Positions 59 through 61,632 of a stretch of 64,000 nucleotides of DNA are shown here, one piece after another (the stretch's first letter is position 1; each line of letters opens with the position of its first letter). The stretch is from the NCBI GenBank assembly GCA_049322915.1, contig JBMOPW010000012.1, forward strand, positions 65,888 through 129,887, in the 5' to 3' direction. Made by a program: the position numbers and the translations under genes. Origin of the DNA: Candidatus Zhuqueibacterota bacterium (GTDB lineage Bacteria; Zhuqueibacterota; Zhuqueibacteria; Thermofontimicrobiales; Thermofontimicrobiaceae). The notes below the pieces were generated by a model that was given only the letters and a program-made list of their open reading frames with translations, searched no databases and was not told the DNA's origin.

Positions 59-87
59 TTGACTCTTTACAAAAAAATTATTATACT
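59..87 (+). promoter_or_regulatory. sigma70-type promoter upstream of RRM gene
   Basis: TTGACT-N17-TATACT. Confidence 0.6.
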
Positions 88-322
88 TCGAGTTATTTTT
101 ACACGAACCAGTAATTTTTCGACCGGGGTTCTTTTCCTGTTCATGACATAACGGAAGTGATACGTTGTTGAATGCGCACCAACCAGGAAAATTCCAATGC
201 AGCATCTTGCTACGACAGGAATTCAGCCGAAACAGGAATCGGTACAACCGATAGAAAAATGAATTATTAGTTCATTTCAAATTTATGTCATAGTCACTTG
301 TCTTATTCAGGAGGGAGATAAG

Positions 323-2384: not shown

Positions 2385-3278
2385 ATGGCTTCTGGTATCG
2401 GAAATATCGAGAACAACCGTCTTGCCTACCTGTACACGGTGCCGGCCTTCGTGGTCATGGGGCTGGTTGTGCTGTACCCGTTTGTCTATAACATCATCCT
2501 GTCTTTTTCCAACATGAATCTGAGCCATTTCAACAACTGGCGACTCACAGGTTTTGAAAATTATTCTGCCGTCTTCCGGGAACGCACATTCTGGTATTTT
2601 TTAGGCAAGACTTTTTTGTGGACGGCGGTCAATGTATTTTTCCACGTGACCATCGGCGTCGCGCTGGCGCTCATTTTGAACAAAGACATCAAAGGGAAAT
2701 CGTTTTTCCGCACCCTGCTCATTCTGCCGTGGGCTGTCCCGCAGTACATCACCGCCCTCACCTGGCGCGGTCTGTTCAACTCCGAATACGGCGCGGTGAG
2801 CCTCATGCTGGATCAGGCTTTCGGCGTGCAGATTCCCTGGCTCACCACCGAATGGGGCGCGTTCACTGCCTGCGTCATCACCAATGTCTGGCTGGGCTTC
2901 CCGTTTATGATGGTCATTGCCCTGGGCGGATTGCAGAGCATCCCGGAAGAATTGTACGAAGCCTCGGACATCGACGGCGCTTCCTGGTACCACAAGCTGA
3001 AACATATCACACTGCCGCTGCTCAAGCCGGTGATGATCCCGGCCATCACGCTCGGCATTATCTGGACGTTCAATAATTTCAACGTGGTGTGGCTGGTGAG
3101 CAACGGCGGCGAGCCGGCGGATACGACGCATATTCTGGTCTCCTGGGTCTACAAGTCAGGATTCCGCTATTTCCGCATGGGCTACGCCGCTGCGTTCTCC
3201 ATGATCATCTTCATCTTCCTGCTCACGTTCAGTTGGAATTTCATCAAAAAGACGCGGGCGACCGAGGCGGTGTATTAG
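2385..3278 (+). CDS. Sugar ABC transporter permease (MalF-like)
   Basis: Hydrophobic helices; EAA loop LYEASDIDGAS; LPWAVP motif. Confidence 0.93.
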   Translation: MASGIGNIENNRLAYLYTVPAFVVMGLVVLYPFVYNIILSFSNMNLSHFNNWRLTGFENYSAVFRERTFWYFLGKTFLWTAVNVFFHVTIGVALALILNKDIKGKSFFRTLLILPWAVPQYITALTWRGLFNSEYGAVSLMLDQAFGVQIPWLTTEWGAFTACVITNVWLGFPFMMVIALGGLQSIPEELYEASDIDGASWYHKLKHITLPLLKPVMIPAITLGIIWTFNNFNVVWLVSNGGEPADTTHILVSWVYKSGFRYFRMGYAAAFSMIIFIFLLTFSWNFIKKTRATEAVY

Positions 3279-3346
3279 CTTTTTTTTGACCTGAATTATT
3301 TGTATATTTTCCACTGTTTTCATTTCCCAATATTCAGAGTACATCG

Positions 3347-3367
3347 GTTAAGATATCTGATCTTAAC
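3347..3367. promoter_or_regulatory. Inverted repeat upstream of TA module, candidate autoregulatory operator
   Basis: GTTAAGAT-N5-ATCTTAAC; function inferred from position only. Confidence 0.35.
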
Positions 3368-3442
3368 GATTCGATTTAACATGCTGTTCAACATATCAGC
3401 AATGTCAATAAAAAGATGAATCAAACGCAGCAGGGACTCACG

Positions 3443-3687
3443 ATGTACGAAATAAAATTTAAGAAAAATGCAGTTTAGGAATTACAAAAGCTACCTCAAA
3501 AAGATGGTCAAAAAATTATAGAAAGATTTCACTGCTGGCAAATGGTCTAACTGGTGATATTAAAAAACTGACAGATTTTACACCTGAGTATCGGCTTAGG
3601 GCTGGTGGTTATCGCGTTCTGTTTGAAATAGAAGAAAATGGTATCATAATTTATCATATAAAGCAAAGAGGAGAGGCATACACATGA
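3443..3687 (+). pseudogene. RelE/ParE-family toxin pseudogene
   Basis: Manual translation MYEIKFKKNAV*ELQKLPQKDGQKIIER, then a frameshift into LANGLTGDIKKLTDFTPEYRLRAGGYRVLFEIEENGIIIYHIKQRGEAYT*; in-frame TAG at 3476-3478; RelE-type YRLR.G.YRV motif; TGA overlaps the next ATG. Confidence 0.88.
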
Positions 3688-3884
3688 TAGCAATTAACCC
3701 AGAAATTTTAAAAAGAGACAATAAGGCTGACTTTGCAATTCTTGATTATAATGAGTATCATAAGTTGCCCGAATATATTCAAGATATTGAAGACCTTGTA
3801 GACTTACGAAACGCAAAAGCGGATACTAAAGATGAAGCAACAATTTCGCTTGATAAAGTAAAAGAAACTTTAGGCATTGATTGA
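3684..3884 (+). CDS. Putative type II antitoxin (Phd/RelB-like), intact
   Basis: 66 aa, acidic; ATGA overlap with relE pseudogene; FAILDYNEY...EDLVDL...SLDKVKETLG pattern typical of such antitoxins. Confidence 0.75.
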   Translation: MIAINPEILKRDNKADFAILDYNEYHKLPEYIQDIEDLVDLRNAKADTKDEATISLDKVKETLGID

Positions 3885-3903
3885 AAATCAACTTCAATCG
3901 ATA

Positions 3904-4076
3904 GTGACAGCAATTAAGCCGAAGAAAAAATTCACCGCAAATATCAGGAAAATTGATAATACAGCATTCACTATCGGCAGTCTTCACGACGATGGGGATG
4001 AAAAGCAAAACCGGTCAACCAAAACATATCAATAAAAAATACAAGCTCTTGAAATGCTGAGACAAATAATCTATGG
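3904..4076 (+). pseudogene. 5' part of small ORF interrupted by the cassette
   Basis: Frame reads VTAIKPKKKFTANIRKIDNTAFTIGSLHDDGDEKQNRSTKTYQ*KIQALEMLRQIIYG (internal TAA 4033-4035) and continues in frame at 6655. Confidence 0.7.
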
Positions 4077-6654
4077 TTAGCCGTGTATACAAATACAATA
4101 TTGTGATAAAATTATGATAACACAAATTAATAAATTAAAAGAGATCGGTATTTTCAAAGATTTCAATTGGAACAATGACATTCCTGATTTTAATAAAAAA
4201 AATATAATATTTGGATATAACGGATGTGGAAAGACGACATTAACTAATATTTTTAATTTGTTTTCCCAAATAGACAAAATTGAAAAAGATGAGTTATTTG
4301 CGGACATAGTGAATGATAAAGACATTTCTGAAATTGAATTAGTTTTCGATGGGAAAAAAGTTAAATACAATAAAGATTTAGCTAATGAAAAAATATGGAT
4401 CTTTAATACAGGATTTATTACAGGTCATATTTATGATGGTTCTTCATCAAATATTAAACAGTTTGATTCAAAGGTTGTAACAAAAGAACAACTCAAAAAT
4501 CCAGAAATAAAAAAAATTGAAGTAACTATTACGGTGAAAAAAGATACCTTTGCTAATTTTAAAACAGATAAAGAGAAATACGAAAATGAATTTGAAAAAA
4601 TTAAGAAGAAATATCAAATTGATTTTAATAATAAAATTTCTAATAAAAGATTAACGGGTTGGAATTTACCCAGCCATGCAACCCAGATCGATCTTAATAA
4701 AATCGATCAAGAGCTTGATGGATATTATAAGAAATACGAGCTTTCCCAAAAACAGGATGAATTTGCTAATGATATAGTCGAAATCGAAAAAATATTCATA
4801 AAATCAATTAAGCTTGATTTTGAAAATCTAACGATTGCATTTTTAAAAAGTATCTCAGAAACTGCAAGAGAGAAAGTTGAACAAAAAATAGCAACCTTAT
4901 CTGAAGTTCAATTAAAAAATTATAAAAGTTTGAGTGAATGGTTTGAAGATGGACTCCAGCTTTTAAAGAGAAATGATTCAAGTAAATTTTATAAATGCCC
5001 ACTCTGTGATAGCGATATAAAATTGAAAATTAATTCGTTAATTGGTGATTATGAAAGCTATTTTAATGATGAGTATAAAATTCTTATTAAAGACCTAAAT
5101 ACTCAATCAGAACAAATCGACATTATTAAAGAAATTTTGAAAGATAATATAATTTCCATTGAAAAAATAAAAACATTTGATAGTAAGTATTCTTATCTCA
5201 TTGATACAGACAAAAAAATAAATTATGAATATTCATTGGAGACCTGTGAAAAGGAATTAGAAAATTTACAGAAGCTGATTTCAGATAAAAAGGAAAATGT
5301 ATCATCCAAAGTACAGGCAGATAGTCTATTAAAAAACTTGAAGAATTTAGTTAATGATTATAATGTTAATTTCTTAAAACCTATCCATGAACAGAAAACT
5401 CTTATTTTTCAAGAATTGAAGAATCAAACTTTAAATGAATCTGTAATCGCTGATAAAATAAAAAATTTAATACAACAGAAGGGCAATTATGATTTTGATA
5501 CTTTTGATACTGGTAATTTAATAAGCGTATATTGGCAGAATGAAAATAATATAAAAAACATCAAAGATGACTTGTCGAAATTAGAAAGACAATTAGAATC
5601 TTCATTGGCTAAACTAAAAAATGAATCCAAATATGTTAATTTTTTTCTGAAACGATTGGGGATATTTCATTTTGAAATAAACATTGACAACACGAAGCCA
5701 AAAGAGAATATTTCAATACTTTATGAAAGCGGATGCACCAAAAATAAATTAAAAAATTCAATCAGCGAAAGTGAAAAATCAGCCTTAGCATTTGCTTACT
5801 TCTTAAGCAAATTACAATATGAAGTAATTGATAATACAACAACCAAATTGTCAGAATGTATCGTTATACTTGACGATCCAGTTTCAAGCTTAGACGAAAG
5901 GCGGCTTTATTCTACAGCTTTTTTAATAAATGATTTGTTAAAAGATGCAGGTCAATTATTTGTTATTAGTCATAATCTTATATTCTTAAAATATTATGGT
6001 AATATTCTTAGTGGCGATGATAGAAATGACTATTTTTTAAATGTAAGAAATAATCTTCCACTACTTCAATCCCTTCCTAAATCACTCTCAAATTATAAGA
6101 CAGCTTATTTTCAAAAATTAGATGATATTTTATCATATATAAATAATGACATTGATTACGAACAAGCTAAAAAGTCTATACCAGGTTGTATTCGTGTTGT
6201 CTTAGAAACATTTTTAAGTTTTAAGCTCTATATTTTAAAACAAGGTAGTAGCACTAATAAATATTTGTCGCCTGGATTAGATAAATTGATAAAAACTTTG
6301 AGCGGCCATATCGGATTATTTAAGAAATATGAAAAAGTCGAAGATATTGATCATGAAAATATTATCTCAAAATTGGAATTTATAAAAAAGACGACTGATC
6401 CCCAATGTCATGGTAGTCCGCAAAATATTGATGAATTCAATTTTATTGATGAAGCTGAATTGAAATTAATTTCTCGTGACGCTTTAAATATCATTAAATT
6501 TTTTGATAACGTTCATTATAATCAAATACAAAACGGCTAACAATCGGCTGCACCTGACAAAACTGCGGTGTTTCAAATCGGGTTAAGTGCAAAGTTTTAC
6601 AGTCATTTCGTTGTGTTAAATATAGTGTAGCAGTTTTGCAGGTGAGCCGGGTCG
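4077..6654 (+). mobile_element. Integron gene cassette (solitary, no intI in window)
   Basis: Left end G|TTAGCCGT (4076-4084) is the exact reverse complement of ACGGCTAAC (6533-6541); single ORF with short leader whose stop codon lies in the R'' box; ends at G|TTATGA. Confidence 0.88.
4114..6540 (+). CDS. AAA_13 / RloC-like SMC-type ABC ATPase with zinc hook and HEPN-like C-terminus
   Basis: Walker A GYNGCGKTT, coiled coil with CPLC hook, signature SESEK, Walker B/D-loop ILDDPVSSLD, H-loop SHN, C-terminal RVVLETFLSFK...DPQCHG. Confidence 0.85.
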   Translation: MITQINKLKEIGIFKDFNWNNDIPDFNKKNIIFGYNGCGKTTLTNIFNLFSQIDKIEKDELFADIVNDKDISEIELVFDGKKVKYNKDLANEKIWIFNTGFITGHIYDGSSSNIKQFDSKVVTKEQLKNPEIKKIEVTITVKKDTFANFKTDKEKYENEFEKIKKKYQIDFNNKISNKRLTGWNLPSHATQIDLNKIDQELDGYYKKYELSQKQDEFANDIVEIEKIFIKSIKLDFENLTIAFLKSISETAREKVEQKIATLSEVQLKNYKSLSEWFEDGLQLLKRNDSSKFYKCPLCDSDIKLKINSLIGDYESYFNDEYKILIKDLNTQSEQIDIIKEILKDNIISIEKIKTFDSKYSYLIDTDKKINYEYSLETCEKELENLQKLISDKKENVSSKVQADSLLKNLKNLVNDYNVNFLKPIHEQKTLIFQELKNQTLNESVIADKIKNLIQQKGNYDFDTFDTGNLISVYWQNENNIKNIKDDLSKLERQLESSLAKLKNESKYVNFFLKRLGIFHFEINIDNTKPKENISILYESGCTKNKLKNSISESEKSALAFAYFLSKLQYEVIDNTTTKLSECIVILDDPVSSLDERRLYSTAFLINDLLKDAGQLFVISHNLIFLKYYGNILSGDDRNDYFLNVRNNLPLLQSLPKSLSNYKTAYFQKLDDILSYINNDIDYEQAKKSIPGCIRVVLETFLSFKLYILKQGSSTNKYLSPGLDKLIKTLSGHIGLFKKYEKVEDIDHENIISKLEFIKKTTDPQCHGSPQNIDEFNFIDEAELKLISRDALNIIKFFDNVHYNQIQNG

Positions 6655-6660
6655 TTATGA
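6535..6660 (+). repeat. attC recombination site (126 bp)
   Basis: R'' GGCTAAC; left arm CGGCT[G]CACCTG[A]CAAAACTGC pairs with right arm GCAGTTTTGCAGGTGAGCCG with two extrahelical bases; R' GTTATGA. Confidence 0.9.
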
Positions 6661-6709
6661 TTCGTCAACCGAACGGATTAATAAATATTTTAAAATGGTA
6701 ATGGGTTGA
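6655..6709 (+). pseudogene. 3' part of the interrupted small ORF
   Basis: Joined to 4076 it reads G-YDSSTERINKYFKMVMG*, stopping 3 nt before the malG-like ATG. Confidence 0.65.
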
Positions 6710-6712
6710 ACT

Positions 6713-7555
6713 ATGCGAAAACCACGAGACCTATCTCTCACAGGAAAAATCGGCGCGTACTCGGTGCTGACGCTGTTCACACTGTTCTCTGTCTACCCCA
6801 TCCTTCGCGTCTTCACGATCTCGATTCGGCCCGGGGACAGGCTGTTGAGCAAATCGCTGGCGCTCATTCCCGAGAACGCCACGCTGGACACCTACGTTCG
6901 TCTGTTCACAAACGAACCCTTTCTCACATGGATGGGCAACAGCCTCATCATTTCATTGGTGGTTATGATTGTGGGCGTGGGATTGGCCGCCACTGCCGGC
7001 TATGCCTTTTCGCGGTACAAATTTGTCGGCAAGGATGCAGCCATGTTCAGCCTCATCACCACGCAAATGTTCCCCATGACCATGTTGCTGCTGCCTTTGT
7101 TCATTATGCTGATCAAATTAAAACTTTACGATTCATACATCGGACTCATCGTTGCCTATTCCGCCACGGCATTGCCCTTTACCACGTGGCAGATGAAAGG
7201 CTACTACGACACCATACCGTACAGTCTGGAAGAGGCCGCGTCCATTGATGGCTGCTCCCAGTTCGCCACCTTCTGGCGGATTGTCCTTCCCCTTGCCGCG
7301 CCGGCGCTGGTCATCACCGCGCTGTTCTCGTTCATGGCCGCCTGGTCTGAATATCTCGTTGCAGCGGTGCTCATTCAGGACCAGAGCCTGTTCACGCTGC
7401 CGCTGGGATTGAAGACATTCCAGTCCGCCATGGAAACATCCTGGGGATTGTATTCTGCCGGGGCAATCATTGTAAGTCTGCCAGTCGTCATTCTGTTTCT
7501 CTTTCTCAGTCGTTGGTTAATTTCCGGTCTCACTCTCGGAAGCGTTAAAGGTTAA
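6713..7555 (+). CDS. Sugar ABC transporter permease (MalG-like)
   Basis: MGNSLIIS, AGYAFSR, EAA loop LEEAASIDGCS, C-terminal GLTLGSVKG. Confidence 0.94.
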   Translation: MRKPRDLSLTGKIGAYSVLTLFTLFSVYPILRVFTISIRPGDRLLSKSLALIPENATLDTYVRLFTNEPFLTWMGNSLIISLVVMIVGVGLAATAGYAFSRYKFVGKDAAMFSLITTQMFPMTMLLLPLFIMLIKLKLYDSYIGLIVAYSATALPFTTWQMKGYYDTIPYSLEEAASIDGCSQFATFWRIVLPLAAPALVITALFSFMAAWSEYLVAAVLIQDQSLFTLPLGLKTFQSAMETSWGLYSAGAIIVSLPVVILFLFLSRWLISGLTLGSVKG

Positions 7556-7978: not shown

Positions 7979-9991
7979 ATGACTGTTATCTCTAAGAAAA
8001 GCATCTTCTCCGGCATCATGGTACTGTTGCCGTTTCTGTTTCTTTTCCTATTCGAAATCAGTCTCAGGGTTTTTCGCTACGGTGATGATTTAAACCTCGT
8101 CCTTGTCAGGGAGGCGAACGGCGAAAAATTTTACCAGCTCAACGAAAATGTCGCCAAACGATATTTCATCCGGACGCCGGCCCACCTCATTCCCCAGCTC
8201 TATCCGCAAAAATTCGAGTATAACAAATCACCGCGCACCGTGCGAATTTTCTTGCTGGGCGGATCGACCATGGCAGGCTTCCCGTTCGAGCTCAATGCCC
8301 GAATCAACAGCCTGCTGCGCGATCGCTTGTTTCATTTTTACCCGGGCAAAGAATTCGAGGTGATCAATGTTGGATTGTCGGCGATCAACAGTTACACAGT
8401 GATGGAATTTGTCGATGAACTGGTGAAGTATGAACCGGACCTGTTCATTTTCTATCTGGGGCACAATGAATTTTACGGCGCGTTTGGCGCTGGCTCTGTG
8501 GAAAGGCTTGGCAAAATCCCGGCAATCACCCGCACCTATCTGAACCTGCGCAAGCTGAGGACATTTCACCTGCTCAGGAATATCTACGCAGCCATTTCAG
8601 CGTCAACCAGGAGCGCGCCGGACCAGCCCTCAAATCGGACATTGATGGCGTCCATGGCCGACAAAAAATCTATCGCTTTTGGCAGCAGCGATTACCGGCT
8701 GGCTCACGCCAATTTTGAGAAAAACATGTCGCGCATCTTTGCCACCTGCCAATCGAATGACGTGCCCGTCCTGATGAGCACCATTACCAGCAATCTCCGC
8801 GGACAGCCGCCGTTCATTTCCCTGTTCAGCGATTCGCTCTCCGAGGCATCCAAAGCCCGCTGGAACACGTTTTTCAGATACGGAGGGACGTATAAAAAAG
8901 AAGGCCGATGGGTCCTGGCGCTTTCATCATTCGAAGACGCAAAAGCCATCGACGCCATGCCGGCGCAGCTTCATTTTGAAATGGGCGAATGCGTTCTCGG
9001 GTTGGGCGATAGTGCAACAGTCAGAGAGTATTTCGTCCGCGCGCGGGATCTGGATGGGCTCCGTTTTCGCGCCTCCTCGGATATCAATGCCATCATCAGA
9101 AAGCTATGCACGCAGCGCAAAATTCCTCTCGTGGACACGGATGCTGCTTTTGCCGGCCAATCGCCGCGCGGCATCATCGGCAATGAGCTGATTAGCGAGC
9201 ATTTGCATCCCAATTTCAACGGCTATTTTCTGATGGCAAAAACATTGGCTCAGGCGATTGATGAATTCAATTTCTTCGGGACGCAGGCTCAAAACCTGCA
9301 TCTCACCGATGATTTTTTTGCGGACTATTCGCGGGTCACGCTGATTGACAGGGCTATTGGGGACAAGAAGATCGAGCAACTCACCTCCGGATGGCCGTAT
9401 TCAAAAAAGGTGACAGCGACGATTCCAGCCGATCCGCAGACAGCAACGATGGTGGAACTGCTTGTGTCACAATACTCCAGTCAGCAGATTTCGTGGAATG
9501 AAGCCCATAACCGTCTGGCCGGATACTATGGGGATCGAGGCATGTTTCCGCAGGCTGTGAATGAATATCAGGCCGTTATCAAGGTTGTGCCGGAGAATTA
9601 CTTCCCGTATTTCAAAATTGGCAATCTGTTTTTCATTCAGAATCAACACGACCTGGCGGAGCAATGGTTCAATCTTGCGTTCAAATTGAACAGTGGAGGA
9701 GCGTTCATCCCGGCGAAATTGGGCATGGTGTATCTGATGAAAAAAGATTATGCCAGCGCCGTCTCGAACTTTCAACAGGCGCTGTCACTGGACAAAAAGC
9801 AGAATCAGCTTTCCAACGATGAAAAAATTTTAGCCCATTATTATCTGGCTGTGAGTTACGTGAGCACGAAGCAACCGGCCCTGGCCAAAGCCGAACTGGA
9901 ACAGGTGCTTCGCCTGGATCCCAGCCACGCCAATGCCCGGCAGTTATCCGGTTTGTTAGCCCAAAATAAAGAAATAAAAATCCAATTTTAA
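7979..9991 (+). CDS. Membrane-anchored SGNH/GDSL hydrolase-domain protein with TPR repeats
   Basis: N-terminal TM; block I LGGST, block III YLGHNE, block V EHLHPN; C-terminal TPRs. Confidence 0.85.
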   Translation: MTVISKKSIFSGIMVLLPFLFLFLFEISLRVFRYGDDLNLVLVREANGEKFYQLNENVAKRYFIRTPAHLIPQLYPQKFEYNKSPRTVRIFLLGGSTMAGFPFELNARINSLLRDRLFHFYPGKEFEVINVGLSAINSYTVMEFVDELVKYEPDLFIFYLGHNEFYGAFGAGSVERLGKIPAITRTYLNLRKLRTFHLLRNIYAAISASTRSAPDQPSNRTLMASMADKKSIAFGSSDYRLAHANFEKNMSRIFATCQSNDVPVLMSTITSNLRGQPPFISLFSDSLSEASKARWNTFFRYGGTYKKEGRWVLALSSFEDAKAIDAMPAQLHFEMGECVLGLGDSATVREYFVRARDLDGLRFRASSDINAIIRKLCTQRKIPLVDTDAAFAGQSPRGIIGNELISEHLHPNFNGYFLMAKTLAQAIDEFNFFGTQAQNLHLTDDFFADYSRVTLIDRAIGDKKIEQLTSGWPYSKKVTATIPADPQTATMVELLVSQYSSQQISWNEAHNRLAGYYGDRGMFPQAVNEYQAVIKVVPENYFPYFKIGNLFFIQNQHDLAEQWFNLAFKLNSGGAFIPAKLGMVYLMKKDYASAVSNFQQALSLDKKQNQLSNDEKILAHYYLAVSYVSTKQPALAKAELEQVLRLDPSHANARQLSGLLAQNKEIKIQF

Positions 9992-55710: not shown

Positions 55711-58248
55711 ATGCCAGGCATCAATCGAGTTCTTTGCTATGGGCTGATGGCGCTGCTCATGCTGGGTGGTTGCGGCAAGAAAACGGAGAAGCGGAAGATT
55801 AAACTGGCCGCCGCCAGCGATACCACCGAACAGCCGGATCAGCTCTCATCGACGATTTACCTGGAGCCCACGCTGCGCCGCGCCGTTGCTGTCATGTTTT
55901 TCGAGAATAAGACCGGCGACGAAAATCTGGCGTGGCTTCAAAAAGGCCTCACGGAAATGTTCATCCGTTCGCTCTCGCAATCCCAAAATATCTCGGTGAT
56001 TAGCTCCGAGCGCGTTTACGAAATTCTCGATCGGCTTGGCCGCACTGAAACCTCCAAAGAAATCAATCTGGACATGGCCGCCATTGTGGCGCGCGAAGCC
56101 AATGTGGAAACGCTCCTGACCGGCAATATTTCCAAAAACGGGGACGGCATCCGAATTAACGTTAAAGTGTTTGAAGCGGACAAAGAAAAAATTCTGAAAG
56201 AAGAAAGCGCCGAAGGCGCCGGGTTGGAACAGATTTTCAGTATGGTAGACAGCCTCACCCACAGCATCAAGAGCGAGCTGCGGCTGACGCTGGAGAAGGA
56301 CGGGACGAAAAAGAGCATCGCCGATATCACCACCACGTCTCTGGAGGCGTGGAGAAATTACATCAACGGCATCAATTTTCTCTATCAATATCGTCTGCCG
56401 GAGGCGCGGGAGCAACTGGAAAAGGCGATCCGATACGATCCCACATTCATCGCCGCTTACATAAGACTTTACAATCTGTATGCGTTGCAGGGATCGCGAT
56501 CCGAAAGCGACGCGGCATTCCAAAACCTGATTCGCTGCCGGGACAATGCCACGCCACAGGAGGCTTACCAGATCGATCTGATCGAAGCTGTACATCATGG
56601 TGATCTGCGGAAAATAATGGCTGTATCTCATGCGTGGCAGGCAGCGTTTCCCAACGACCGGGAGGCGAATTACAACCTGGCAAATACTTATTTTCAAATG
56701 GCAAATTACGATCAGGCCATTGAGTACTATGAAAATGTCCTGAGAATCGATCCTAATTTCCAAACCGCCAACAACATACTGGGCTATGCCTATGCCTACA
56801 CCGGCCAGTTCGCCAAAGCCATCTCCCGGGTGGAGAAATATAAACAACTCTCCCCGGATGAACCGAATCCATACGACAGCCTCGGCGAGATTTACCTGTT
56901 CATGGGCGATTTCGAAAAAGCTCAGGAAAATTTCAGGCAGGCCACTCAAGTCAACGAAAACTTCGTCTATAGCTGGATCCATCTCGGCGAAACCTATTTC
57001 GAGACCGGCGATTACAAAAAAGCCATGGACCACTTTCAAAAGGCAGCGCACATGGCGAAGGACAATGTCAATTCCGTGGTAGCCTACCGCGCGCTGGGCA
57101 TGACGCAACTGCGACTGGGGAATAGTGAGGCAGCGGCGGCATCTTTATCAAAATACCTGGATTATCAGACCAATTATTATACCAATTTCACCCTCATAAA
57201 CGATCTGTATTTGAGCCAGCGAGACACGGCGCGGGCCAATGAAATGATGGAAAAAAATTACCGCCGCATCATCGAGACAATTAACACCGATCCTATCCGA
57301 ATTCTGGACCTGGCCAATCTCGGCTTCTGGCACAATTATAAAATCAAAGAGACGATAGACATCATCCAACGGAGAATTCAGGAATCGGACAATGATTTCG
57401 CCAACCTGTGGGGCCGATTTGTCATTGCGCTGCTCTACCTGAAATCGGACCAGACCGACCAGTTCGAAAAAGTGTCCGATGATTTCGCCCGCGAGTTCAT
57501 TGAAATCATCAACGACGTCCGCGACATTCGTTACAACTATCTCACCTGGAAGGGCTATCTCGTGTTCAACGAATATGCCTATCGGTTCAAAGAAGAGGGC
57601 GTCGCCAAATACAATGAGCTGATCCGCTATTGCCAGCAAAATAGCCTCAACATGCCGGAGATGGTGTTCCGCTCGTTTCTGGCTGATCTGTATTTTCAGA
57701 CAGGAGAGACTGAAAAGGCCAGACTTGAGTTGAAACTCGCCGGGGTTCCGCCGGAGCATGTCTGGTGGCATCTGGGACCATTTGAGAATGAAAATGGCTT
57801 TTCGAAACAATTTCCGCCCGAGAAAAAGATCGATCTGAAACGCAGCTACAAAGGTCTCACCTCGGACATCCGTTGGGGAAAAATCAACGATGGCTTTCGC
57901 GAAGGGTATGTCAATTACAAACAGGCTTTCCCGCTCACCAACTGGGGAGTGTGTTACGCCCTTGTGTACATCAAGAGTCCGACAGCAACGTCAGCCCAAA
58001 TTCGATTGGGTTCCAATGAATCGGTGAAAGTGTGGTTGAATGACAACGAGGTCTGGCGCTGGAATGAAGTGCGCAGTTCCATTTTTGACGATGATGTGGT
58101 TCAGGTGTCCTTGCAGCCGGGGATGAATAAAGTGCTCGTCAAGATTTGCAACCGCATTGGCGAATGGGGATTCTATTTTCGCGTGACGGACGAGCAGGGC
58201 GTGGGCCTGCCGGATATCGAGTTCGTGTCTCCTCCCGAAATGAATTGA
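55711..58248 (+). CDS. Lipoprotein: TolB-N/FlgO-like domain + TPR + C-terminal beta-sandwich (paralogue 2)
   Basis: Lipobox LGGC; same collinear motifs as 52352-54913 (KRKIKL, WLQKGLTEM, SPDE.NPYD, FRVTD..G.G..DIEFVS). Confidence 0.85.
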   Translation: MPGINRVLCYGLMALLMLGGCGKKTEKRKIKLAAASDTTEQPDQLSSTIYLEPTLRRAVAVMFFENKTGDENLAWLQKGLTEMFIRSLSQSQNISVISSERVYEILDRLGRTETSKEINLDMAAIVAREANVETLLTGNISKNGDGIRINVKVFEADKEKILKEESAEGAGLEQIFSMVDSLTHSIKSELRLTLEKDGTKKSIADITTTSLEAWRNYINGINFLYQYRLPEAREQLEKAIRYDPTFIAAYIRLYNLYALQGSRSESDAAFQNLIRCRDNATPQEAYQIDLIEAVHHGDLRKIMAVSHAWQAAFPNDREANYNLANTYFQMANYDQAIEYYENVLRIDPNFQTANNILGYAYAYTGQFAKAISRVEKYKQLSPDEPNPYDSLGEIYLFMGDFEKAQENFRQATQVNENFVYSWIHLGETYFETGDYKKAMDHFQKAAHMAKDNVNSVVAYRALGMTQLRLGNSEAAAASLSKYLDYQTNYYTNFTLINDLYLSQRDTARANEMMEKNYRRIIETINTDPIRILDLANLGFWHNYKIKETIDIIQRRIQESDNDFANLWGRFVIALLYLKSDQTDQFEKVSDDFAREFIEIINDVRDIRYNYLTWKGYLVFNEYAYRFKEEGVAKYNELIRYCQQNSLNMPEMVFRSFLADLYFQTGETEKARLELKLAGVPPEHVWWHLGPFENENGFSKQFPPEKKIDLKRSYKGLTSDIRWGKINDGFREGYVNYKQAFPLTNWGVCYALVYIKSPTATSAQIRLGSNESVKVWLNDNEVWRWNEVRSSIFDDDVVQVSLQPGMNKVLVKICNRIGEWGFYFRVTDEQGVGLPDIEFVSPPEMN

Positions 58249-58267
58249 AAATGCACAAAGGCGGCGT

Positions 58268-59161
58268 ATGAATGTCATTGAAGTCAACGGTCTGACGAAA
58301 TTTTATGGCGCCATTCGCGGCGTTGAGGGAATCCGGTTTCAGGTCGGGCGCGGTGAGATTTTCGGATTTCTGGGGCCCAACGGTGCCGGCAAAACAACCA
58401 CCATCCATCTGATCATGAACCTGATCCATCCGGATCGCGGGACGATTCAGGTGTTCGGCGACAGGTTGGACAACGATCGGGTGGAATTACGCGACCGCAT
58501 GGGTTACTTGCCGGGCGACTTCAACGCCTATCGCGAAATGTCCGGCCGCAAATTTCTGAATTACATAGCCGGCTATCGCTCCCGTCCGCCAGCGCTTCGG
58601 GAGATGCTATTGGAGAAATTGAAACTGACGGCCAAAGACCTGGGCCAGATGACAAAGTATCTGTCCCACGGCACGCGACGGAAGCTGGGAATTGTCTTTG
58701 CGCTGGAACATGATCCGGATCTGGTAATTCTGGACGAACCGACACAGGGTCTCGATCCGTTGATGCAGGAAGCCTTTTACGAGATCATCCTCGATTTTCA
58801 GCAGCGGGGGAAAACCATCTTTTTTTCGTCCCACATCCTTCGGGAAGTCGAGCGAATCTGCCATCGTGTGGCCATCATCCGCGCGGGCAAAATCGTCACC
58901 GAAGAATCGATCTCGGCGCTGAAACAAAAACGCTCCCGTCGGCTCATCCTCGAATTCAACGATGAAAGCGCGGTCCAAAACATCAATGTACCGGGTGTGA
59001 AATTCATCAAAAAAATCGGCAGGCAATGGATGTACCAGGTCGAGGGCAACATCCCGGAATTGCTGGCGCAGTTATCCGCTCTGGCCATTGAGGACATCAT
59101 CTTTCCGGAGCCGAATCTGGAGGATATTTTTCTGGATTATTACACGGGAGAGAATTCTTGA
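58268..59161 (+). CDS. ABC exporter ATP-binding protein
   Basis: GPNGAGKTT, LSHG, ILDEP, SSH. Confidence 0.95.
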   Translation: MNVIEVNGLTKFYGAIRGVEGIRFQVGRGEIFGFLGPNGAGKTTTIHLIMNLIHPDRGTIQVFGDRLDNDRVELRDRMGYLPGDFNAYREMSGRKFLNYIAGYRSRPPALREMLLEKLKLTAKDLGQMTKYLSHGTRRKLGIVFALEHDPDLVILDEPTQGLDPLMQEAFYEIILDFQQRGKTIFFSSHILREVERICHRVAIIRAGKIVTEESISALKQKRSRRLILEFNDESAVQNINVPGVKFIKKIGRQWMYQVEGNIPELLAQLSALAIEDIIFPEPNLEDIFLDYYTGENS

Positions 59162-60243: not shown

Positions 60244-61632
60244 TCATTTCCAGTATTTGCTGATGAATTCCTGCACTTCCGGAATGCCGCCCTGGAAAAT
60301 CAAATAGCCGTTATGGGGCTCCCGCTCTGTAATTTCGCCGGCAATCGGGGTGAGCATGATATTCCGCACCTGGTCCGGATCCGAGGTTTGCCCCAATGCC
60401 CAGCCCAGTTTGACATATGCCACCTCCGGCAACATATTGGCCGCCGGAATAACGCCCAGTTCCATCATGTCGCGGCCGGTGTCGTAGACATACATCTGCA
60501 CATATCCCCACAACGTCTGCACGGTCATGTACATGGCAACGCCTTTATCGTGAGCGCGTTTCAGCGCCGGGTACAGCGGTTTGTTCACGTGTCCCAGTCC
60601 GGTGCCGGCAATGACAATGCCCTTGTATCCGTTATCAATCAGCGCATCGATGATATCCGGCTGCATGTTGGGATAATAATAAAGAATCGTCACCTTCTCT
60701 TCGAACGCGGTGTTGATGGTGACATTCCGGTCGCTGCGCCGATGTTTATAATCATCGCGCAGATGAACGAAACGGTCGCGGCTGACCATGGCCAGCGGAA
60801 TATCGCCGATGGTCCGAAAGGTCGACCGATAGCTGGAATGCATTTTGCGAACCCGCGTTCCCCGATGCAGCAAATCGTACTGGTCGCTGGTCGGGCCGAA
60901 CATGCAGACCATCACTTCAGCGATATCGCCCTCTGCCGCGCTTTTCGTCGCATTGATCAAATTCATGGCCGCATCCGAAGACGGCCGGTCGCTGGATCGC
61001 TGCGACCCGACCATCACAATCGGCACTGGCGAATTCTGCACCATGAACGACAGGATCGCCGACGTGTGGTGCATCGTGTCGGTCCCATGGCCGATCACAA
61101 TGCCGTCAACGCCCTTCTCGATTTCGCTGCCAATCGCCCGGGCCGTGCCAATCCACTGCTCCGGGCCCATGTTCTCGCTGAAAACGCCGTACAGCTTTTC
61201 GGTTTCCAGATTGCAGATATCCGCCAGCTCCGGGACCGAGCCGTACAGTTCCCCGGGCGAGAACGCCGGTATCACCGCGCCGGTGCGATAATCCAGCCGG
61301 CTGGCAATGGTGCCGCCGGTGCCAAACAGCTTGACGCGCGGCTTGTTCGGTTCGTACGGAAACGCCTTTTCCGGAATTTTGTAATGGGCCTTTTTATACC
61401 CCTTTTCCGTGATCTGCTCAATTGTCTCCACGGCAAGTCCCACATTGTACCCGTTGTGCAGTTTCAGCACGATGTGATGATCATCCGCGGTTTCGGATCT
61501 GGGGAGAATAATGCCGGAGAAGTCACCGCGCGTGGTATGCACTTCCACATCGCTCCACACCTGCACTGCGGCATTCTTCAATGCCGTGAGCGCCGGTCCC
61601 CGATAGCCTTTATATGTATCGTTGTCAGTCAT
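60244..61632 (-). CDS. gatD: Glu-tRNA(Gln) amidotransferase subunit D (archaeal-type glutaminase)
   Basis: N-terminal GIILPR...HIVLKL.NGYNVG domain; TGGTIASR.DY.TGAV, HGTDT, QRSSDRPSSDA, RKMHSS; adjacent to gatE; start at MTDND. Confidence 0.94.
   Translation of the reverse strand: MTDNDTYKGYRGPALTALKNAAVQVWSDVEVHTTRGDFSGIILPRSETADDHHIVLKLHNGYNVGLAVETIEQITEKGYKKAHYKIPEKAFPYEPNKPRVKLFGTGGTIASRLDYRTGAVIPAFSPGELYGSVPELADICNLETEKLYGVFSENMGPEQWIGTARAIGSEIEKGVDGIVIGHGTDTMHHTSAILSFMVQNSPVPIVMVGSQRSSDRPSSDAAMNLINATKSAAEGDIAEVMVCMFGPTSDQYDLLHRGTRVRKMHSSYRSTFRTIGDIPLAMVSRDRFVHLRDDYKHRRSDRNVTINTAFEEKVTILYYYPNMQPDIIDALIDNGYKGIVIAGTGLGHVNKPLYPALKRAHDKGVAMYMTVQTLWGYVQMYVYDTGRDMMELGVIPAANMLPEVAYVKLGWALGQTSDPDQVRNIMLTPIAGEITEREPHNGYLIFQGGIPEVQEFISKYWK

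Follow-up and report, generated by a model that had tools for sequence, protein, structure and literature searches.

The stretch of DNA analysed here, called the window throughout, comprises 64,000 nucleotides from a Candidatus Zhuqueibacterota bacterium of the family Thermofontimicrobiaceae (assembly GCA_049322915.1, contig JBMOPW010000012.1, forward strand, positions 65,888 to 129,887), and all coordinates given without a contig name are positions in it. Its segment 4077-6654 is one integron gene cassette, in which an ATPase gene is followed by a single attC recombination site. Based on the two junctions of this cassette and on an empty counterpart of the site in a genome of the same genus, we consider it highly probable that an integron integrase (IntI) inserted the cassette into a small accessory gene by a natural attC x attG reaction, of the type that leaves a single attC lacking integron-integrase (SALIN) at a genomic site. 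The source genome (G000, with the window on its contig C12) is a metagenome-derived draft of 6.25 Mb in 45 contigs, 96% complete; the same-genus genome is referred to as G001 and its locus as L006.

In G001 the same permease genes enclose the same toxin-antitoxin (TA) islet, with 77-85% identity to the window, and the 2.6-kb segment is absent; the match of G001 to the window runs to 4079 and resumes at 6706. The empty site reads ...ATCTATGG TTATGAT... and, over a longer stretch, ...CAAATAATCTATGG TTATGATCC..., to be compared with a left junction of ...CAAATAATCTATGG|TTAGCCGT... in the window (...CTATGG TTATGATCC... in G001) and with a right junction of ...GAGCCGGGTCG|TTATGATTC..., at which the cassette end GGGTCG is followed by target sequence. 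The alignment of the occupied with the empty site is exact to the base, without target duplication or loss, and places the insertion precisely at G|TT.

The segment itself has the layout of a cassette: a leader of 37 nt, the ATPase open reading frame (ORF, 4114-6540) and, directly after it and in the same orientation, the attC. The R'' box, GGCTAAC (6535-6541), contains the ATPase stop codon TAA (6538-6540), and the R' box, GTTATGA (6654-6660), has its bases 6655-6660 supplied by the target. The spacers, AAT on the R'' side and GTC on the R' side, are 3 nt long and unpaired, the variable loop has 63 nt, and in the 21-bp stem formed by the bottom strand two single bases are bulged out, G6550 and A6557 of the top strand, at a distance of 6 bp. 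Unpaired spacers and extrahelical bases count among the features that define attC sites. The fold has a z-score of -2.8, and none of 200 shuffled sequences folded as well.

Rfam holds no attC family, and in place of the attC model of IntegronFinder we used two home-made covariance models: R1, which like BLAST found sites of this kind elsewhere in G000 and in relatives, and R2, a leave-one-out model of 14 sites from 11 other genomes and none from G000, made to avoid circularity. Both are specific to this attC subfamily, and a very different attC could escape them. With filters off, R2 gives the window attC 114.3 bits (E 3.4e-28); all 21 base pairs of the model are formed and both bulges fall at conserved columns of the family alignment. 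In the stem shared by the 14 sites 95% of the cells are paired and 12 of 20 pairs show compensatory changes, two values neither of which was reached in 500 shuffles, and sliding the 3' partners lowers the pairing to 29-45%. The original prediction had described precisely this site, a 126-bp attC after the ATPase gene with the stop codon in R'' and two extrahelical bases, and fold and model both bear it out. It had also noted that the 5' end of the cassette, GTTAGCCGT (4076-4084), is complementary to ACGGCTAAC (6533-6541); the one is the exact reverse complement of the other over 9 bp, with no tenth base, as is expected if the cassette circle was closed via its own attC and opened at G|TT. The R' box of the 14 related sites begins with GTT in 11, with GAA in two and with GTA in one.

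No second att site is visible at the locus. Run with filters off on the 64-kb window, R1 and R2 both report a single site, at 6529-6667, and no attC upstream; in the window and at the G001 locus R2 returns nothing else with E < 3, bar a weak reverse-strand echo of the same palindrome. The bottom strand of the left flank (3930-4095) is unstructured (z +0.56), which argues against a divergent attC at the junction, and the intact site of G001 does not fold either (z -0.48, 60 of 200 shuffles as good). The earlier statement that neither an attC nor an intI lies upstream holds for the two models and for the integron integrase profile TIGR02249 (best match in the genome 79 bits, against a cut-off of 265), attI-type direct repeats having had no formal search.

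The target is coding sequence. In G001 it is an intact ORF of 67 aa that runs uninterrupted across the junction, and its family, one of small proteins (67-70 aa for the kind found here, 62-118 aa overall), has at least 502 members and reads through the junction; no Pfam or NCBIfam model matches it. When nine of its members were aligned to the window by tblastn, all nine matched over 3940/3949-4077 (up to ..IIYG) and four had a second match from 6656 (YDSSTERI..), a weak one (E 0.5-2.4) on a very short piece. The junction codons TAT GGT TAT GAT spell the Y-G-Y-D motif, which is found in 119 of the 120 family members listed. The single frame that had been obtained by deleting the cassette is thus a real one, and the protein family with the motif 'LRQIIYGYD' that had been suggested exists. 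What had been missed is that the frame 3904-4076 is not open, as it carries an in-frame TAA at 4033-4035 and has lost its ATG through a 9-bp deletion relative to G001. The window copy is therefore a pseudogene and more than a split gene, which fits decay after disruption. What had been designated a chromosomal gene is a small accessory ORF in a TA islet, and the islet in its turn was inserted, at an earlier time, between two genes for ABC permeases.

We propose the following course of events. IntI would have recombined the folded bottom strand of the attC of a free cassette with a double-stranded genomic site, the target being an attG-type site without att structure, 5'-...CTATGG|TTATGA-3', inside the small accessory gene. 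With the exchange between G and TT, the cassette would open with its own TTAGCCGT, the partner of R'', and close with its own ...GGGTCG followed by the target's TTATGAT. The insertion would have taken place after the split from the G001 lineage, and the disrupted gene would then have decayed. As the attC family is shared by integrons of related genomes, the most likely source would be a chromosomal integron of the clade to which these genomes belong, and the cassette would be stranded for now, no integrase gene having been found in the present assembly. Transcription of the cassette is probably by read-through: it is co-oriented with the TA genes and with the ABC transporter operon and has no recognisable promoter of its own, a promoter and terminator scan of 3200-6800 being without enrichment (24 promoter-like matches against 20.4 +/- 4.9 expected). 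The target's GTTAT is also the commonest R' start in the attC family (6 of 14 sites), a resemblance that would at most hint at some sequence preference.

Several points weigh against this proposal. The enzyme is not in hand, as the best TIGR02249 match in G000 scores 79 bits against the cut-off of 265, which is the level of XerC/D-type matches in all 14 control genomes, and G001 has no integron integrase above the cut-off either; the part of IntI is thus read from the signature of the junctions. Positions +6 to +9 of the target are ATTC (ATCC in G001) and do not match the CRGM motif reported for IntI1 hotspots (10.1101/2022.09.11.507474), a motif defined for a different integrase. A search for the same cassette in integron arrays elsewhere had been proposed, and the ATPase run against the genome contigs found no relative and no donor array, the nearest database protein being 48% identical. 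The defence function, the read-through expression and the polarity of the insertion are things that we infer, and an earlier insertion, followed by exact removal of the cassette in G001, would produce an identical pair of sites. Finally, the assembly is 96% complete and two of its attC-bearing regions (on contigs C36 and C32) reach contig ends; the C36 cluster comes to within about 100 bp of one, and the gap in the assembly might contain an integron platform. For this reason the original description of the locus as a footprint left by IntI acting in trans outside any integron is retained for the precise G|TT insertion into a non-att target, but not for the words 'in trans': a resident integron later lost or unassembled and a transient element cannot be told apart here as the source of the integrase.

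Three other explanations were weighed. The TA genes and the small ORF might be former cassettes of an array that has lost its integrase, an attC cluster that has no integrase (CALIN), with the ATPase cassette joined by attC x attC or attC x attI recombination and the upstream site since decayed. Toxin-antitoxin genes are common as integron cassettes, G000 does hold integrase-less attC clusters (on C14 and C36), and an imperfect 25-nt inverted repeat marks the left end of the islet (3279-3415). That repeat, however, sits 660 bp from the junction and is matched by neither R1 nor R2; on either side of the junction, in the window as in G001, there is no hairpin and no model match. The junction falls within a conserved coding sequence, which both G001 and the members of the protein family carry uninterrupted, and none of the 15 copies of the small gene in relatives is on a contig with an R1 hit to the attC family, so that it is not a typical cassette gene of this family. 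The empty site largely refutes such a remnant array, which we regard as very improbable. The cassette might instead have been present in the common ancestor of both genomes and have been excised precisely from G001, which would still be an attG insertion, only an older one. G001 does carry attC sites of the same family (three matches on its contig C84), and IntI is reported to excise cassettes precisely from genomic sites (10.1101/2022.09.11.507474), but two events are then needed instead of one. Moreover, the small gene is intact in G001 (67 aa) and decayed in the window, as expected if only the window copy was ever disrupted, and the intact ATPase ORF and the full set of 21 attC pairs fit a recent event or selection; we therefore give this history a small probability.

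An error of assembly or binning, or a move by some agent other than IntI (a transposon, a group II intron or illegitimate recombination), deserves mention as the genome is a metagenome draft in 45 contigs, the cassette has a GC content of about 25% against about 52% in the flanks, and group II introns adjoin other attC sites in G000. Nevertheless, both junctions fall at G|TT to the base and the rejoined flanks equal G001, which neither a chimera nor another element would give; the cassette has no terminal inverted repeats and no target duplication, and our reading of sequence and ORFs at 3200-6800 suggests no intron, the Rfam search having covered three other loci of G000 (L028, L029 and L030). 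In addition, a 26.7-kb Logan contig made with a different assembler matches 3700-6900 without differences and with uniform depth across both junctions. The stretch is present, as contigs, in one sequencing run, probably that of the source sample, and the Logan contig probably comes from the same sample, so that it argues against a chimeric join without being independent data; two further runs of that study have almost no coverage of the stretch, which is uninformative. We attach next to no weight to this last group of explanations, and the attC x attG insertion by an integron integrase is the reading followed below.

Table. Features of the locus and attC sites on contigs of relatives that carry a complete intI. 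Coordinates refer to the window unless a genome and contig are named.
Feature	Coordinates	Strand	Remarks
ABC transporter permease 1	2385-3278	+	PF00528, 1.1e-16; left chromosomal flank of the AT-rich islet
ParE/RelE-type toxin pseudogene	3443-3687	+	TAG stop and frameshift (1-nt gap); C-terminal piece 3529-3684 matches PF05016 ParE_toxin
Phd/RelB-like antitoxin gene, 66 aa, intact	3684-3884	+	ORF; G001 orthologue matches PF02604 (1.1e-05) and PF18506 (8e-04)
Target gene, 5' part, now a pseudogene	3949-4076	+	No ATG; in-frame TAA at 4033-4035; ends ...IIYG; 9 homologues by tblastn
Left junction	4076-4078	+	Target G (4076), then the cassette's own TT (4077-4078); crossover G|TT; from the G001 alignment
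Inserted cassette	4077-6654	+	2,578 bp, about 25% GC; boundaries from the G001 alignment
RloC-like AAA_13 ATPase, 808 aa, intact	4114-6540	+	PF13166, 1.6e-50; CxxC 295/298, R694-x3-E698, invariant H766
attC, 126 bp	6535-6660	+	R'' 6535-6541, L'' 6544-6566, loop 6567-6629, L' 6630-6650, R' 6654-6660
Target gene, 3' part	6655-6709	+	YDSSTERINKYFKMVMG, then stop; continues the frame from 4076
ABC transporter permease 2	6713-7555	+	PF00528, 5.1e-21; right chromosomal flank; 85% identical to G001
intI and attC, G014:C108	intI 2994-3932; attC 72-210		L040-L042 set
intI and attC, G018:C187	intI 8558-9388; attC 41-188, 3880-4023, 5559-5702		L040-L042 set
intI and attC, G015:C126	intI 58168-59112; attC 60650-60796		L040-L042 set

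The cargo is an ABC ATPase that resembles RloC and carries a putative anticodon-nuclease module; it is probably a tRNA-cleaving protein that serves phage defence. The protein is full length when compared with homologues of 742-858 aa, and in an alignment of 24 sequences Walker A, the ABC signature, Walker B and the switch His are conserved, with G34/K40, S551, D587/D588, H620, C295/C298, R694, E698 and H766 invariant. Downstream of E698 the sole invariant His is H766, at a spacing of 67, the nearer H732 (spacing 33) not being conserved. The best PADLOC match is the candidate defence family PDC-S06 (1.6e-55), with PrrC a weak one (1.1e-09); a homologue with 39% identity carries the source name 'wobble nucleotide-excising tRNase', and the protein is rare, as a search of 124 other genomes from the class gave homologues in no more than two, both distant (28-31% identity). 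According to its description RloC has the motifs of an ABC ATPase, a zinc hook (CxxC) and a nuclease triad, Arg-X3-Glu-X36-52-His; in the Geobacillus protein the residues are C291, R692, E696 and H737 (PMC2610378). The window protein, of about 800 aa, shares with that description the ABC motifs, the Pfam AAA_13 assignment and an invariant C-terminal His, and its CxxC at 295 and R694-x3-E698 lie close to the Geobacillus C291 and R692/E696. It differs in a Glu-to-His spacing of 67 in place of the published 36-52, and in a His preceded by Cys instead of Ser. The likeness to RloC is judged by the published account of the residues, and the best library match is to the uncharacterised PDC-S06. Integron cassettes are reported to be frequent carriers of defence systems (10.1101/2024.07.02.601686; 10.1101/2024.07.02.601719).

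The mechanism that we propose is already published, and natural cassettes at secondary sites have been known since the aadB cases. As Loot et al. describe it in their preprint (10.1101/2022.09.11.507474), IntI joins the folded bottom strand of attC to double-stranded genomic sites whose sole consensus is 5'-GWT-3', with cleavage between -1 and +1 in the attC x attG reaction; SALINs are counted in 2,469 of 21,105 genomes, and cassettes so inserted can be expressed from nearby promoters. They can also be excised, precisely or not, when IntI is supplied, for which reason the original view that the cassette is probably fixed for want of a second att site was overstated: its stability here is due to the absence of a detected IntI. 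The locus resembles the SALINs of that account in having one attC, no intI nearby and a crossover at 5'-G|WT-3' (here GTT), in a target without att structure, and in a disrupted gene with the cassette co-oriented with upstream transcription. It differs in that the preprint argues from counts of isolated attC sites that lone cassettes in genomes arise by direct insertion, and demonstrates how this happens by assays of IntI1, IntI2 and IntI3 in E. coli and V. cholerae, whereas here a natural event is resolved against the empty site of a sister genome; furthermore, intI is co-oriented with the cassettes in three relatives and CRGM is absent at +6 to +9. The aadB cassette at secondary sites of plasmids RSF1010 and pRAY (cited in 10.1101/2022.09.11.507474) is likewise a complete single cassette outside an integron and downstream of a resident promoter. 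Those cases concern resistance cassettes of class 1 integrons on small plasmids, whereas here a 2.6-kb, probably defensive cassette sits in a chromosome. With a CALIN as defined in PMC9024848 the locus shares an attC without an adjacent integrase, and such clusters are found on C14 and C36, but one attC in 64 kb that arose by insertion is not the product of array decay.

The known picture of integron biology is unchanged by this locus. What it provides is a clean natural before-and-after pair at base resolution from a distant, uncultured lineage. As in the laboratory route, the exchange falls at G|TT, a gene is disrupted and the cassette points the same way as a host operon; the cargo is likely an anti-phage nuclease. 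It also offers a target of 18-40 bp and an attC with which the integrases of this clade can be tested against those of classes 1-3, and about ten dispersed attC sites in G000 are open to the same analysis.

The islet into which the cassette was inserted spans 3.4 kb between the two permease genes and is AT-rich (GC 22-35% against about 50-57% in the flanks); it consists, from left to right, of the toxin pseudogene, the antitoxin gene, the front of the small gene, the 2,578-bp segment and the remainder of that gene. In relatives with matches to both permease genes on a single contig, the two are usually about 10-60 bp apart (for example in G002, G012, G005 and G010), with wider gaps of 0.1-2 kb in several others (G008, G013 and G009 among them). 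The spacer looks like a recurrent landing place: the TA islet occupies it in this genus and another insert does so in G011, where a 500-aa DNA methyltransferase-like gene with no visible attC lies between the permeases (G011:C729:8355-10018, locus L024).

Within the islet, the toxin piece 3529-3684 matches PF05016 at 7.1e-05 (23.8 bits, cut-off 23) and the window antitoxin matches NF048017 weakly (0.011). The ParE/RelE-type toxin is broken differently in the two genomes, by a TAG and a frameshift in the window and, in G001, where the gene occupies about 1900-2160 of L006 on the minus strand, by an in-frame TAA as judged by eye, and the antitoxin is intact in both, which suggests from the sequences that the toxin was lost independently and the antitoxin retained. 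The inverted repeat at the left edge of the islet (3279-3303 and 3391-3415) has arms of 25 nt that are 72% complementary and 87 nt apart, and G001 seems, by eye, to differ at one position in each of the two arms. An operator, a terminator and a decayed recombination site are all conceivable identities for it; we also considered the islet as a reversed cassette with this repeat as its attC, for which R1 and R2 give no match.

Beyond the locus, a genome-wide search for related attC sites and an intI, as the original prediction had proposed, found 14 sites in G000 with R1 at E <= 1, and no intI. Most of these sites follow an AT-rich stretch of 0.8-2 kb within DNA of normal GC content, and cassettes of this attC family occupy about ten chromosomal places, as single copies and small clusters. 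Two clusters without an integrase stand out: three sites within 3.5 kb on C14 (535705, 538292 and 539131; span 535705-539215) and three on C36 (222349, 228993 and 230538; span 222349-230678). A search for further pairs of empty and occupied sites in G000 matched only the right flank of the C14 cluster in G001; at the locus on C20 divergence of the intergenic region is too great and the attC is degenerate, and no pair was resolved.

Of 41 genomes, 22, with G000 among them, contain the attC family: 10 of 13 in the same family, all 7 in the order's two other families, and 4 of 20 elsewhere in the class. Fourteen of the 41 relatives have an integron integrase that passes the TIGR02249 cut-off, and in three of them (G014, G018 and G015) this attC family lies on the same contig as a complete intI, 1.5-8 kb beyond its 3' end and in the same orientation. 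Cassettes that lie beyond the 3' end of intI and are co-oriented with it form the 'inverted' layout of Treponema-type integrons. Contigs of metagenome-assembled genomes (MAGs) with an exact match to the attC core are labelled candidate division KSB1 (two) and Calditrichaceae/Calditrichia (three), and further contigs with the exact core are labelled Cytophagia (two, both from one MAG) and Phycisphaeraceae (one).

It is tempting, if rather speculative, to think that this lineage records the fate of an integron after the loss of its integrase, namely dispersed cassettes, some of them followed directly by group II introns and at least one at an attG site whose GTTAT mimics the commonest R' box of the family, with no integrase found in either of the genus's two genomes. 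If that were true, attG use would be an ancient and general property of integron integrases, the clade with co-oriented intI included, and one of the main ways in which defence genes pass from chromosomal integrons to the operons of uncultured phyla.

Other elements were seen beside the dispersed attC sites. A group II intron follows directly on an attC R' box at G000:C32:241270-242250 (L029 3273-4251, minus strand; GTTATG|GTGCGACAC...); it spans about 840 bp, matches Rfam RF02012 with 80 bits and RF00029 with 68 bits, and is probably ORF-less. The same string, GTGCGACA(C), follows the attC at two further sites, G000:C36:230538 and G000:C19:88888, and the arrangement resembles that of group IIC introns which target attC and share the direction of the cassettes. 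At G001:C84:25485-25624 and G014:C108:72-210 the R' position reads CGAACC(C/T)CGCAGTAA in place of GTT..., and the downstream sequence shared by these two sites points to an element present at both or to an atypical junction following the crossover G.

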